A stretch of 31,719 bases of DNA from a virus, in UHGV virus genome UHGV-0106476. One strand, written 5' to 3'. How positions within the stretch are numbered: position 1 is the stretch's first letter; every line of letters begins with the position of its first letter. Under the pieces are notes generated by a model. It was given only the letters and a program-made list of their open reading frames with translations, did no database searches and was not told the DNA's origin. A program made the position numbers and the translations under genes. This document shows, in pieces, positions 1-8,474 of this stretch.

Positions 1-347
1 GGTTCGGCCTGAAGCATGGCGGCGCGATAGGCGTTCCAGCCGACAGCTTTTCCGTGTTCAAACGCGCTGTCAAAGTCATCATCCATTTCCATCGCATCAG
101 GCACAGATACCGGCGCTGGCGGGGCGGTGTAAACAGGCATAACGTCGCTTTGCCCTTTATTGCTCTCGTCAGTAAGCGCCCAGAAAAGCCTACCCGCTGG
201 ATGCTTGAAGATATACGCCACAGCCTCCGCTTCGAGCGATGCCAGCGCGATACGCGCCAGCGCCGAAGCCTCACCACATTGAACGTGGTCAGTTTCGATA
301 ATTTGCTGTAACTGCTCTTTGGTGAATTCTTTGGTGATAGTGATCAT
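1..347 (-). CDS. hypothetical early-left operon protein, N-terminal part only (gene runs off the window start)
   Basis: Minus-strand ATG at 345-347 with GAGGA about 8 nt upstream; frame open to the window edge (MITITKEFTKEQLQQIIETDHVQCGE...). Absent from the ORF track because there is no stop in the window. Confidence 0.5.
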   Translation of the reverse strand, partial: MITITKEFTKEQLQQIIETDHVQCGEASALARIALASLEAEAVAYIFKHPAGRLFWALTDESNKGQSDVMPVYTAPPAPVSVPDAMEMDDDFDSAFEHGKAVGWNAYRAAMLQAE

Positions 348-350
348 GGG

Positions 351-785
351 TTAGTCCTCACCTTTCTGCTGTACAACCGGAACCGATAAATCTACACACC
401 AGGAAATCACCCCAAATTGGGCGTCGTTCTGCGCTTCACCGTAAACGTAATATTTAGCACCAGGTCGCCCCATCACTGGATCAAATACTTCGATACCACG
501 CTCTGCCGTTAATGACATTAAAATCTGGTGTAACCCGCCCTGAATATTCAGAGACGGTACGGTCAGGAAATAAATAAACCCATAAAGCAGTTCACATTTT
601 CTTTGGCTGCCGTAGAAGTAAGGGATTTTGTAATAATCCAGGGCATCATCCAGCCAGTCTGTTTTGTCGTGAAAAGCCTGGTGCCAGCGAGCAACCACCT
701 CGTCAACAGGCTGACCAGCAACCATTGCTACACAGGTAGCCATGCAGGTGTTAAATGTTGGCTGCATTTGATGTTGAAGCATCAC
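351..785 (-). CDS. hypothetical protein with peptidase C39-like (papain-fold cysteine peptidase) N-terminal motif
   Basis: 144-aa ORF; N-terminal Q-x5-TC-MATC-VAMV resembles the Q...CG-x-AC-LAM-I catalytic-Cys motif of C39 bacteriocin-processing peptidases. Start overlaps the upstream gene's stop (ATGA-type coupling). Family call is from memory. Confidence 0.5.
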   Translation of the reverse strand: MMLQHQMQPTFNTCMATCVAMVAGQPVDEVVARWHQAFHDKTDWLDDALDYYKIPYFYGSQRKCELLYGFIYFLTVPSLNIQGGLHQILMSLTAERGIEVFDPVMGRPGAKYYVYGEAQNDAQFGVISWCVDLSVPVVQQKGED

Positions 786-1324
786 TCCCCCTTACCGATG
801 CCAGCGGCGCGGTCTATGCGTTCGATTTCAGCCAGAATTAAAGCCCCTGCTTTTACCAGGTTGAGACGGCGGGCATTTGGCTTCCACCATGAAGTATCCC
901 AAGGCCACCCCCACGGCTTGCCACCATTGCGGTTAACAGTTCCTGTTTCGTTTATGTAACAAACCGCCGCCATTGCCAGTTCCCCGTTGCAGTGTTCGTC
1001 ATCATGCTCTGGCATCCACCCCTCAACCGATTGTTGCCGCTGGCGCTCTGCTATCACATCCAGAATTGCAGGATTGAATGCACGCGCTTCCAGTTCTGCA
1101 ATGCGCTTCTCTGCGGCTTCCAGCGATGCCAGCAGCGCCAGCACGGTAGTGGGGTTTGCTGCGGAGTTCAGCGCGTTCAAGGCAGTGATATCTGCATCAA
1201 GCTGAGTTCCTTCTGCCAGTGAGATATCGAAAATGTCATCAGGCGGCATAACACTAAGGCGCTCATGTGCGCCAACTGCTGCCGCTGCGATTTCACGCAG
1301 CGCCTGTTTGTCGATGTTGCTCAT
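782..1324 (-). CDS. Ea22-like (ead/Ea22 family) early protein
   Basis: 180-aa ORF beginning [16 protein letters not shown] with a coiled-coil middle and Trp-rich C-terminus (GKPWGWPWDTSWWKP); translationally coupled to flanking genes. Family assignment from recollection. Confidence 0.45.
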   Translation of the reverse strand: MSNIDKQALREIAAAAVGAHERLSVMPPDDIFDISLAEGTQLDADITALNALNSAANPTTVLALLASLEAAEKRIAELEARAFNPAILDVIAERQRQQSVEGWMPEHDDEHCNGELAMAAVCYINETGTVNRNGGKPWGWPWDTSWWKPNARRLNLVKAGALILAEIERIDRAAGIGKGE

Positions 1325-1902
1325 TGCGCGTCCCCCTTGCGAATCTGGGCGGCGATGTCTTCGAGTACACCATCAGCGAACGAGCGATCGAAATCGCCTT
1401 CCGGCGCATTAGCCATAAACTCAGTAGAGGTAAGAATCATCCTGGCAATATCCGCTGCGTTCTTCGCAGTATCATCAATAAAACCAGCATCCCAGGCAGC
1501 CAGCATTCTGTTCGCCACAAAGTAAGCGCCTTCCTTGCGTGCTTCAGTCTTCACTTCATCCCAAAAAGCGTCGGTGACTTGGGTTTGCGGCATCCTTCCG
1601 TCTATTGCGCAGATATACGCATCAGATAGTTCACCCTGCTCGCCGTCAAACACGTAGCAACTCTGTACGATAAATTTATTCAGCCACGCATTCTCCACAG
1701 CCAGCGCCGCGCACTTGGCCTCAAGGTTATCAATCGTGATTCCAGCAGAACGACACTCCCGCAACGCCGTTTCTAGTTTTGATTCAAGTTCACCGAACTT
1801 ACGCACCAGATATTCAGCGTTTGTTTCGTTAACCTTTAAATCACATGGGATGCATTTACCTTTCAGAAAACCATCCATCTTAATTAGTGACATTTGTTTC
1901 AT
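1321..1902 (-). CDS. hypothetical early protein (possibly Ea22-like)
   Basis: 193-aa ORF in a chain of 4-nt-overlapping minus-strand genes downstream of the recombination module. Confidence 0.5.
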
Positions 1903-2063
1903 TTCTTCCCACTCCGCAACATTGCATTCAGATATTTGTTGTCATTAACAGAACCGAAACTCTTTCTCTTAAGCAATTTCTCTCTCGATGGCATTGGCTT
2001 TACGCGTTGGCGAATAATCATTTCTGCCGGAAGAATGCCGGGATTGTATGCAAGTCCTCTCAT
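1899..2063 (-). CDS. small hypothetical protein
   Basis: ORF track gives 1899..2096; the ATG at 2061-2063 (MRGLAYNPG...) has a GAGGAA RBS 7-8 nt upstream and avoids overlap with the upstream gene, so it is preferred. Starts at 2081 or 2096 remain possible. Confidence 0.4.
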
Positions 2064-2073
2064 GGTAAATTCC

Positions 2074-2370
2074 TCAGTCATTACTGATAGCGCCATAGCG
2101 TGAGCGGTAATTACGCAGGCGCGGGTCGATATATTCAGGGAATTTGTCTATTGTCTCTTTTCGCAACGGTCTCATTGCTGTTTCGTTTGTTCGGTCCTTC
2201 TCATCTTTTAACGCGAGTTGTATATCGCGTCGGTACATCCGTTCTGCTTTTGTTTCTGGTGGAAGATCGATAAACGTGTCGAAATTATTTTTGATATTTT
2301 CCAGCACCTCCGCCTTGGAGCTACCGGAGCAGTTGCGCGGGTCATCCGCACCATACAGAGGCGCTGGCAT
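2074..2370 (-). CDS. hypothetical protein (position compatible with a P22 Abc-type anti-RecBCD gene; unverified)
   Basis: 98-aa [19 protein letters not shown]... downstream of erf/ssb on the pL strand. Functional guess is positional only. Confidence 0.5.
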
Positions 2371-2393
2371 AATGGGAGCCTTATTTTGCTAAT

Positions 2394-2774
2394 CTAGAAG
2401 GGAATTGAATCGTCGTATTCAGGATGATTTTGATGATTGCTACTTTGCTGCTGGCCATTTCCTGAAGCTGCAAATCCAATCTTTGCATTCAGTAATTCAA
2501 GAGTGATTGATTGACCATTTTGCCCCTGATAAACATCAACCCTGATGTTTTCTCCGGTAATTTCCACAATTCCACCTTCAACAAGAACACTACGGTAGTA
2601 ATCCGCTTGCGCTCCCGGCTTGGCAAATACAACGGCGCTGTAGTTTGTCCATTCTTTCTTTTTTGTCTGGCGATCGTAATACTGAACGCCAGCACGGATG
2701 TTGAATCCGATATTTTCCCCGGCCTGAAACTCTCTTGCGGGCTTGTTTAGTCTTACAGTAATCGAATGTGCCAT
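2394..2774 (-). CDS. phage SSB-like protein with acidic C-terminal tail
   Basis: In-frame ATG at 2772-2774 gives 126 aa (MAHSITVRLNK...) ending DDSIPF, which matches the bacterial SSB C-terminal tip DDDIPF. Start overlaps the erf stop (TAATG). Confidence 0.6.
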   Translation of the reverse strand: MAHSITVRLNKPAREFQAGENIGFNIRAGVQYYDRQTKKKEWTNYSAVVFAKPGAQADYYRSVLVEGGIVEITGENIRVDVYQGQNGQSITLELLNAKIGFAASGNGQQQSSNHQNHPEYDDSIPF

Positions 2775-3927: not shown

Positions 3928-4896
3928 TTAGTAGGTTATTTTTGTTGCGAATACTTCGCCTTTTACGATGGCTGTTATGATATTTTTAGCAACATCTTCT
4001 GATGCGCCAACCTTGATAAGGTCAGCAAGTATTTTGTTATTTACTTCTTTCCGGTGAGCTTTATCCTTTGCTCTACGCTCTTCTTCGTCCTTGATTCTTT
4101 TTTCTTCTGCTATTCTGGCTTGCTCTTTTGCTTCAGCCTCGCGCCGGATTCGTTCAGCCTCCTCCTGTGCTTTTCGGCGTTCTGCTTCAATTGCCGCCTG
4201 CTTTTCTCTTTCAGCTCGTTCTGCTGCCTCTTTTGCTTCGCGCTGTGCTCGTTGCTCGGCTTCAATGCGTTCACGCTCTGCACGTTCCGCTGCGGCCTTA
4301 GCTTCTGCTTCTCGCCTTGCTGCTGCTTCAATTTCGGCTTTTGCCTTTGCTTCGGCTTCTGCTCTGGCTTTCTCTTCAGCTTCTCTTTTTAAGCGTTCTT
4401 CATGCTCTCGCTTTTCCTGCTCCGCTTTGAGTCTTGCCTCTTCTCTTTGGCGGTCAAATTCGCGATCCATCAAAATAGCTATTTCATGGTCAGACTCAAT
4501 TTGCTTTGCGAGAGCTTCAGCTGCTGCCTTAGCTTCTTCTTCGGCTTTAATCCGTGCCTGTTCCTCCTCATAATCAGTAAGAGGCTGGCGTGCCTTGGAT
4601 TTCAGCTCATCAAGGCGATCACGCACTGTCTTGCGGTTGGCATCAATTAGCTTTGGAATTTCCTTCAGTTCAGCAACAAGGTCTTTTCCAAGACCATCGA
4701 GATATGTTTTCGTCTGCGCAACTTTATACGCCAGAGAAGCGATCTCCTTTCTGCCCTTTGCCGTTGTGATATCAGGCACAAAGGACATAACTTCACGTTC
4801 AACCTTTTGAAGGATTTCTTCAATCTGGTCGGCAGACTGAAATACAGTCATTGCATTTGCTTTTTCAATAACAACTAAATCTGTTACTTCACTCAT
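3928..4896 (-). CDS. hypothetical protein with long E/A/K/R-rich charged helical repeat region
   Basis: 322-aa ORF: globular N-terminus, about 150 aa of EAKAxAE/RREAE-type repeats, then a short C-terminal domain (NKILADLIKVGASEDVAKNIITAIVKGEVFATKITY). Confidence 0.6.
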   Translation of the reverse strand: MSEVTDLVVIEKANAMTVFQSADQIEEILQKVEREVMSFVPDITTAKGRKEIASLAYKVAQTKTYLDGLGKDLVAELKEIPKLIDANRKTVRDRLDELKSKARQPLTDYEEEQARIKAEEEAKAAAEALAKQIESDHEIAILMDREFDRQREEARLKAEQEKREHEERLKREAEEKARAEAEAKAKAEIEAAARREAEAKAAAERAERERIEAEQRAQREAKEAAERAEREKQAAIEAERRKAQEEAERIRREAEAKEQARIAEEKRIKDEEERRAKDKAHRKEVNNKILADLIKVGASEDVAKNIITAIVKGEVFATKITY

Positions 4897-7348: not shown

Positions 7349-8065
7349 TCAAACCAGCCTTAGTTTTGTCTCAATTGCAACGCCTATAATCTTGCAGTTT
7401 CCATTGATTGGCACGAGAGGCCATGCAGGGTTAAGTCCCTTGAGGTATTTATTTCCGCCGTCGATTATCAGCTTCTTGAATGTTGCTTCGTTAGAGTCAG
7501 AAAGTTTTGCTATGACCAAGCTGCCGTTGATCGCCTCCCTTCCGGTATCGAAAAGAACGAATGTTCCCTCTGGAATGCTTAACCCAACCGGTGCCGTCAT
7601 TGAATCACCTTCCACTTTAAGCCAAAACGCATTACCTTGAATATGCGCGTCAGACTCAAGCCAAACATCTATGTCTTTAATGGTGTATGGTTCGCATGCT
7701 TCACACCACGAGCCAGCCTGGATACTGCTTAACACCGGATACCTCTTTCCTGCTCTGTATTCCCCTGCATACCTTACGTTGGCATCGCTCTTAAGGCTTT
7801 CTGCCTGTTCTGCAACCTTGGCAGCAATTGACTGGCTAAAATCAGCAATTGAGACTTGCAATAATCGTGCAAAACCAGATGCAACCTCAACGTTTAGCGC
7901 ATTTCTGCCATTAAGATAATGCCCTACCGCTCCTTGGGTGATACCCAGTTCATCAGCGATTGAGTATTGGGTTATTCCCAATTCTTTCTTTTTTGACTCA
8001 TACAAAGCCTTAAGCCGCTTAGCGTCTTCGAGCTGTTCTGTCGTCAGTGATTTTTTATTTTCCAT
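7349..8065 (-). CDS. cI: CI repressor (HTH plus LexA-type S24 autopeptidase domain)
   Basis: 238 aa with an N-terminus resembling lambda CI (LTTEQLEDAKRLKALYESKKKELGITQ), an EGDSM Ser motif and a C-terminal catalytic-Lys region (FKKLIIDGG); divergent from cro. Confidence 0.9.
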   Translation of the reverse strand: MENKKSLTTEQLEDAKRLKALYESKKKELGITQYSIADELGITQGAVGHYLNGRNALNVEVASGFARLLQVSIADFSQSIAAKVAEQAESLKSDANVRYAGEYRAGKRYPVLSSIQAGSWCEACEPYTIKDIDVWLESDAHIQGNAFWLKVEGDSMTAPVGLSIPEGTFVLFDTGREAINGSLVIAKLSDSNEATFKKLIIDGGNKYLKGLNPAWPLVPINGNCKIIGVAIETKLRLV

Positions 8066-8100
8066 AGCTTAATTCTAATAGCTAAGGTACTTAAACTAAA

Positions 8101-8142
8101 AATACCCTGAGTATTGATTGCCTTGAATACCTGTAGTATTCT
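8101..8142 (+). promoter_or_regulatory. PR promoter with OR operators
   Basis: -35 TTGATT (8114-8119), 17-nt spacer, -10 TATTCT (8137-8142). Operators AATACCCTGAGTATT (8101-8115) and AATACCTGTAGTATT (8126-8140), the same family as OL. GGAGAG RBS at 8161-8166 precedes cro. Confidence 0.55.
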
Positions 8143-8171
8143 TTGTTCATGGTTAATAACGGAGAGTGCAT

Positions 8172-8366
8172 ATGATTCGAATGACACTTGCCGATTACGC
8201 CAAAATCCATGGACAGGCTAAAGCAGCCAGTGACTTTGGTGTAATCCAGTGCGCTATCAGCAAGGCCATTCTGGCAGGCCGTAACATCATGGTTACGGTA
8301 AAGCCTGATGGCAGTGTGATTGGAGAGGAAGTTCGTCCTTTCCCAAGCAACAAGAAAAACAAATAG
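8172..8366 (+). CDS. cro: Cro repressor
   Basis: 64 aa from the ATG at 8172 ([64 protein letters not shown]), closely resembling lambda Cro. The ORF track's start is an upstream GTG. Confidence 0.85.
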
Positions 8367-8372
8367 TAACAC

Positions 8373-8416
8373 CGCTCTTTAACAGTCATGGTCCTCATTC
8401 CCGCCGAAATGCGGGA
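8373..8416 (+). promoter_or_regulatory. nutR: nutR (boxA and boxB)
   Basis: boxA CGCTCTTTAACA at 8373-8384; boxB TCCCGC-CGAAAT-GCGGGA at 8399-8416, identical to nutL boxB. Confidence 0.7.
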
Positions 8417-8474
8417 ATACAACGCGCATAAGTTGATGCGCATAACTTCTTATTAGTTAAGGAAATACTTACAT

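Follow-up and report, generated by a model that had tools for sequence, protein, structure and literature searches.

The peptidase domains of ComA, PCAT1 and LahT, which belong to the Peptidase_C39 family (Pfam PF03412), are fused to an ATP-binding cassette (ABC) transporter, and the PCAT/AMS transporters have a leader-bearing substrate gene nearby. HlyB-type C39-like domains are inactive substrate-binding modules without the catalytic Cys. To our knowledge, few phage proteins have been described as site-specific proteases against host proteins. Cpe1, a type VI secretion system effector of Escherichia coli ATCC 11775 (PMC12136450), and StbD-CT, a CdiA-like toxin of Citrobacter rodentium (bioRxiv 10.64898/2026.05.07.723447), exemplify free C39-like peptidases with specific cytosolic targets that are cut at Gly-Gly; both cleave GyrB/ParE between the two glycines of LHAGGKF in the ATPase domain. 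The present analysis concerns a gene in the virus genome UHGV-0106476, a stretch of 31,719 nucleotides referred to here as the window. This gene (351..782, minus strand, with a TAA stop at 353..351) encodes a protein of 143 residues that matches the family phrog_4049 and is, by its predicted fold, a divergent stand-alone C39-like cysteine peptidase of clan CA with intact catalytic residues. On the basis of the structural model and residue conservation, it is highly probable that the protein is an active C39-like peptidase, and a probability of about 0.6 is assigned to the complete statement that it is an active, cytoplasmic, early C39-like endopeptidase with a host-directed role.

An AlphaFold2 model generated from an alignment of close homologues reached a mean predicted local distance difference test score (pLDDT) of 87.8 and a predicted template modelling score (pTM) of 0.85. 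With residues numbered from a GTG codon at 785, which gives an open reading frame (ORF) of 144 amino acids, a helix starts at Cys14 in this model, His86 lies at the beginning of the strand formed by residues 85-93, and another strand (97-101) ends just before Asp102. As modelled, this layout is the papain-fold arrangement, in which His86 and Asp102 are located on adjacent beta-strands. When the model was compared with the PDB using Foldseek, the first seven matches were all PCAT1, and in another fold search the structural neighbours (scores in brackets) included the ComA peptidase domain (5xe8; 9.7), PCAT1 (8vp3; 9.6), the endoisopeptidase PeiR (8z4h; 9.3), the double-glycine protease LahT (6mpz; 9.2) and a C39-like peptidase (3erv; 9.1). 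C39 peptidases outranked every other class in both fold searches. A structural neighbour in BFVD, from a Bacillus phage, is named 'Peptidase C39 domain-containing protein', and the same name is used in UniRef for one relative.

Profile comparison also points to the C39 peptidases. A profile of 103 diverse full-length members of the family aligned with the LahT150 fragment in hhalign at an E value of 2.6e-5, with Q8, C14, H86 and D102 paired with the Q, C, H and D of LahT. In Pfam, Peptidase_C39 was matched by 27 of the 103 members at E<=0.1, and every other family by two members at most. The gathering cut-off of PF03412 is 22 bits, a value reached by two of ten relatives that were rescanned against this model (P0143 with 27.9 bits and P0204 with 22.1 bits); the window protein falls below it and has no Pfam match at E<=1. 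Judged from these sequence scores, the PF03412 model covers the family only at its fringe. The original prediction, which had proposed a papain-fold, C39-like peptidase for the ORF at 351..785 and made it depend on a profile match of this kind, is supported by the fold searches, the hhalign result and the Pfam matches of the relatives, although the window protein alone has no Pfam match.

Despite a mean column identity of 24% and identities to the window protein of 23-58%, the alignment of the 103 members contains five invariant columns, namely Gln8, Cys14, His86, Asp102 and Pro103, and several nearly invariant ones (Cys18, Ala20, Met21, Val76, Ser78, Asn80 and Tyr113). On the minus strand of the window, the predicted oxyanion-hole residue Gln8 (CAG, 762..764) is situated six residues before the predicted nucleophile Cys14 (TGC, 744..746), the first residue of the helix 14-23. 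The predicted general base is His86 (CAC, 528..530), and Asp102, the predicted third member of the triad, is followed by Pro103 (GAT CCx, 477..482). In the LahT150 alignment these residues fall on the Gln, the catalytic Cys, the His and the 'DP' of that protein, and the order and spacing of Gln, Cys, His and Asp typical of C39 are thus retained by the window family. A second cysteine, Cys18 (TGT, 732..734; Cys in 96 of 103 members), lies one helical turn past Cys14; the same C-x3-C spacing occurs in StbD-CT (Cys183/Cys187), and LahT150 has no Cys at this position. An inactive C39-like domain is ruled out by the invariant Gln/Cys/His/Asp set, Cys14 being kept in 103 of 103 members. Several elements of the original prediction are borne out by these results: the N-terminal motif it had quoted is found on the minus strand as Q8-PTFNT-C14-MAT-C18-VAMV, the conserved His partner on which it depended is present as His86 (accompanied by Asp102 and Gln8), and the expected Cys/His pair is placed in the model at a helix start and a strand start, respectively.

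Compared with the described systems, the phage protein is neither fused to nor encoded beside an ABC transporter, and the lack of a transporter domain that had been noted earlier is confirmed by the size of the product, only about 143 residues. In seven lineages, no linked double-glycine substrate gene accompanies the peptidase, in contrast to the PCAT/AMS transporters. The protein further differs from ComA, PCAT1 and LahT in scoring below the Pfam threshold, in possessing the family-specific motifs C-x3-C and VPSLN, and in being phage-borne and encoded in an early operon. Whereas the HlyB-type domain has lost its catalytic residue, Cys, His and Asp are all invariant in the phage family. Cpe1 and StbD-CT carry PAAR, CdiA or YajC-dependent entry domains; the phage protein has none, since Gln8 is preceded by only 7-8 residues (median across the family, 8). 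These toxins are also followed directly by a cognate immunity gene, while the gene downstream of the phage peptidase varies even among prophages with the identical peptidase and no neighbour is shared across lineages, and no sequence-level similarity between the toxins and the phage protein was found. The family is best filed as phage-borne, single-gene, early and free C39-like peptidases, for which no earlier description was found in the literature.

Regarding the gene itself, the minus-strand ORF at 351..785 comprises 144 codons if read from GTG. From the sequence, the ATG at 782 is almost certainly the true start, with a product of 143 residues, because homologues begin with MLQHQ and the exact 143-residue product is present on contigs (in 81 blocks of a public assembly collection). 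At the junction with the upstream ORF (780..794, minus strand), a Shine-Dalgarno-like AAGGGGGAG within the 3' end of that ORF is followed by TGATG, in which the upstream TGA (784..782) and the ATG of the peptidase gene (782..780) overlap by one base. The upstream ORF (782..1324, minus strand, 180 amino acids) matches Pfam Ead_Ea22 at 4e-17, in agreement with the translational coupling to an Ea22-like gene proposed in the original prediction. The same prediction had located the gene at the distal end of its operon, a placement that does not hold: another minus-strand ORF (1..347, continuing beyond the window edge) has its ATG at 347, 3 nt past the TAA of the peptidase gene, which shows that the operon extends further, and several additional genes lie between the peptidase gene and xis/int in related prophages. 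Downstream genes vary among other prophages. The ORF at 1..347 has PHROG matches, all of unknown function, and Pfam and PDB searches returned no informative domain for the ORFs on either side of the peptidase gene.

No sigma-70-like promoter site was detected in window positions 1..2500 (3.1 expected by chance), and the two terminator-like matches in this region, no more numerous than in shuffled sequence (2.5), both fall inside 1258..1302, upstream of the gene. With no promoter-like site and no convincing terminator-like site to itself, the peptidase gene is read within the early-left polycistron. The surrounding window genes encode the anti-RecBCD protein abc2, Erf, SSB, an N-like antiterminator and a CI/C2-type repressor, and the nearest DNA matches of the window are P22-like and lambdoid phages; together, these observations assign the window to a P22-like lambdoid phage and the peptidase gene to its early-left operon. 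The GC content is about 47% across the peptidase gene (window 201..800) and 53-56% in the flanking ORFs, a dip that fits a cassette of separate origin.

The family to which the window protein belongs by sequence is phrog_4049 (unknown function in PHROG and without functional annotation), the match covering residues 1-141 and profile positions 1-144/145 with an E value of 5.6e-51 and 173 bits. Close homologues form 34 clusters from Enterobacterales, labelled hypothetical or uncharacterised where named. A profile built from 23 close homologues was searched against 1.84 billion cluster representatives (clusters at 50% identity), yielding 762 representatives at E<=1e-3, a signal well above chance, of which 404 passed E<=1e-10; most have a length of 135-160 amino acids, and ten longer members contained no additional Pfam domain at its curated cut-off. 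Using tblastn, 192 phage records were found to carry the family, nearly all of them hypothetical where annotated. Members occur in lambdoid and Mu-like prophages, Ackermannviridae, Vequintavirinae, Seuratvirus, Nonagvirus, and Vibrio and Pseudomonas phages, and seven of 5426 complete E. coli genomes have a match, at 83% nucleotide identity. Literature searches, including those for phage C39-like or cysteine proteases, retrieved no paper on the phrog_4049 family. An E. coli protein of 95 residues, P0032, shows 91% identity to the peptidase over its first ~66 residues and has a precomputed Pfam NinE match; from its sequence, it looks like a recombination remnant in which the 5' end of the peptidase gene is fused to ninE.

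The genomic contexts of the family indicate that it moves as a single gene. Among lambdoid prophages (loci L008-L015, with the gene at 8001-8432 in each), the identical protein is encoded at three places: in the early-left PL operon between recombination genes and xis/int, in the nin region between replication genes and NinE/NinG/Q, and, in one case, a few genes upstream of the small terminase subunit. In all three placements, the peptidase gene follows directly on an Ead/Ea22-like gene whose length varies; the body of this upstream gene differs among prophages with the identical peptidase gene, and the two are not co-inherited. At the DNA level, identity to the window sets in only 12 nt ahead of the GTG and, where the prophages are least similar, extends no more than 24 nt past the stop codon, so that a single gene is the moving unit. 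When ORFs located up to about 3 kb from the gene (8 kb for prophage loci) were compared all against all across seven lineages, no neighbour beyond the peptidase itself was shared, except for the holin and LysB-like genes of Seuratvirus CAjan and Pseudomonas phage Almagne. Neither gp36 of Vibrio phage VP5 nor the protein encoded upstream in CAjan shows similarity to the Ead/Ea22-like ORF of the window.

Across these phages, phrog_4049 genes sit mostly among early or small accessory genes. They are found within arrays of small genes in Vequintavirinae, in a similar array in Samunavirus SM1, and amid unannotated genes in VP5. In a Mu-like prophage from a gammaproteobacterial metagenome-assembled genome (locus L020, 5048-6972), the homologue P0195 immediately follows the MuA and MuB genes and precedes a Kil-family gene by two genes, a position at which the Mu 'semi-essential' early region begins. 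In Ackermannviridae (Kuttervirus Maynard and Agtrevirus Gloob), the homologue is placed between the genes for the large and medium subunits of the phage topoisomerase II, with frames that overlap or abut them (Maynard L003, 1071-4757; Gloob L017, 1074-4768); a gene for a MazG-like pyrophosphatase is located just upstream in Maynard. The CAjan homologue lies ~1.5 kb upstream of holin and LysB-like genes (L002, 4932-5733), whereas in Almagne the corresponding lysis genes (L018, 2070-2919) come just before the homologue, which is itself upstream of the gene for the large terminase; between the two phages, the holin ORFs share ~29% and the LysB-like ORFs ~30% identity.

The window protein lacks a signal peptide, a pro-region, a transporter, a delivery domain and any linked partner. 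In the proposed mechanism, the peptidase would be made early in lytic growth and act in the cytoplasm, where it would cut one or a few specific proteins encoded elsewhere, most probably host proteins, at a Gly-Gly-type site by analogy with characterised C39 enzymes. Given that the gene travels without companions between unrelated phages of Enterobacterales, Vibrio and Pseudomonas, a conserved protein of the host or a component of its defences is the most likely substrate, and cleavage of this substrate would serve host takeover or counter-defence. The anti-defence or host-manipulation role raised in the original prediction would fit these gene contexts. The combination of an intact catalytic set, wide spread, 'hypothetical' labels and single-gene travel is a pattern typical of host-takeover or counter-defence effectors. 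If the proposed mechanism is correct, the use of free C39 peptidases to cut specific cytosolic proteins would extend from interbacterial toxins to viruses, and the substrate could reveal a new phage route to disabling a host function. Although the fold assignment itself is unsurprising, a widespread, unannotated and probably host-directed protease with a testable candidate target deserves follow-up, and phrog_4049 could already be named 'C39-like cysteine peptidase' in annotation pipelines.

Several points weigh against this interpretation. The window protein alone found nothing significant in Pfam, NCBIfam or PDB sequences, and the probability of the profile-to-LahT match in hhalign was only 75%. 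A profile of close homologues likewise found nothing significant among PDB sequences, and a broader profile reached 6mpz (LahT) at a non-significant E value of 0.89, nonetheless in the correct register at the catalytic residues; PADLOC models did not match the window protein. Since single-sequence searches were empty, the C39 link is drawn from the predicted structure, from the comparison of profiles and from transitive homology. The relative positions of Gln8, Cys14, His86 and Asp102 in the catalytic site come from the predicted model, and proteolysis, cleavage specificity and substrate are predictions drawn by analogy. A papain fold with this triad is also compatible with acyl transfer, deamidation or isopeptide cleavage. 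In addition, the proximity of the homologues to lysis genes in CAjan and Almagne implies that an early role is not universal in the family.

Alternative explanations differ from the host-directed endopeptidase either in the target or in the chemistry. A counter-defence isopeptidase or protease, cutting a host immune protein or Gly-Gly-ended ubiquitin-like conjugates (from Bil-type or CBASS Cap2-type conjugation), is regarded as rather doubtful. Such a function would agree with the cleavage of C39 enzymes after Gly-Gly, with the patchy distribution seen in E. coli (7 of 5426 complete genomes), and with accessory regions in which the peptidase gene is accompanied by the anti-RecBCD gene abc2 and, in one related prophage, by a Lar-type restriction-alleviation gene; however, specific support is lacking, as no PADLOC match points to a partner, no description of counter-defence activity for phrog_4049 was found in the literature, and deubiquitinase-like structural matches score below the C39 matches. 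Maturation of a precursor encoded by the phage, such as the removal of a double-glycine leader as transporter-linked C39 domains do for bacteriocins, would be the canonical C39 function, and LahT, ComA and PCAT1 are indeed the top structural matches. The absence of a conserved neighbour gene in seven lineages and of any ABC transporter, together with a cassette that travels alone between unrelated prophages and operons, makes it the most improbable of the explanations considered. Scarcely more probable is the same fold with a different chemistry or role, such as an acyltransferase, deamidase or transglutaminase, a CHAP or NlpC-P60 wall enzyme, or an inactive HlyB-like binding domain. Papain-fold triads do support acyltransferase, deamidase and transglutaminase chemistries, PeiR is a close structural neighbour, and one relative aligned with the His/Asp region of an arylamine N-acetyltransferase, a weak and non-significant match (E 0.32); against this, C39 is on top in both fold searches, Peptidase_C39 is the sole Pfam family matched by more than two members, and the invariant catalytic residues exclude an inactive domain. 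The neighbouring holin and LysB-like genes in CAjan and Almagne would suit a wall enzyme, but the window gene is situated in the early-left operon instead of a lysis cassette, and its product has neither a cell-wall-binding domain nor a signal peptide. For the window, an endolysin-type cell-wall peptidase is unlikely given the operon position, the lack of an export signal and the lack of a wall-binding domain.

A more specific proposal is that the peptidase cleaves the ATPase subunits of host type II topoisomerases (GyrB and/or ParE), a reading that is considered improbable. The residues Q177/C183/C187/H258/D275 of StbD-CT and Q8/C14/C18/H86/D102 of the window protein are similarly spaced, including the second Cys that LahT lacks, yet in structure the protein matches StbD-CT no better than it does transporter C39 domains, and profile searches against PDB sequences found no sequence-level affinity to this toxin. 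Two subfamilies of Ackermannviridae have the homologue between phage topoisomerase II genes, and the large subunit of Maynard has YAGSNF where GyrB has HAGGKF (matched by eye), so that it would be without a Gly-Gly site; the two observations suggest that the phage eliminates the topoisomerases of its host and puts its own enzyme in their place. This synteny is limited to one phage family among the lineages examined, and YAGSNF may be merely typical of T4-type or eukaryote-type topoisomerase II. Host gyrase is required for the replication of lambda and for the transposition of Mu, and a GyrB-destroying enzyme would accordingly be costly for these phages. No phage topoisomerase gene was noticed in the ORF list of the window, a list that was not checked systematically for one. 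The general form of the proposal, a widespread early phage effector that cuts GyrB/ParE at the Gly-Gly of LHAGGKF as the two toxins do, and that is paired in Ackermannviridae with a phage topoisomerase II lacking the cleavage site, is equally improbable; if true, it would make the protein the founding case of a C39 effector protease that phages encode and direct at the host, and in Ackermannviridae the control of DNA topology would pass from the host to the phage.

Two neighbouring ORFs show further features. The Ead/Ea22-like ORF at 782..1324 is modular: its N-terminal 80 residues correspond to Pfam Ead_Ea22, and its C-terminal ~105 residues, which include EHDDEHCNGELAMAAVCY and have no Pfam or PDB sequence match, recur as the C-terminal part of at least seven PHROG families whose N-termini differ. 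The motif is reminiscent of all-alpha NTP pyrophosphohydrolases. Elsewhere in the early-left operon, a minus-strand ORF of 322 amino acids (3928..4896) matches phrog_1376 and phrog_21365, both of unknown function, and contains a long stretch very rich in Glu, Ala, Lys and Arg, a composition consistent with a coiled coil.
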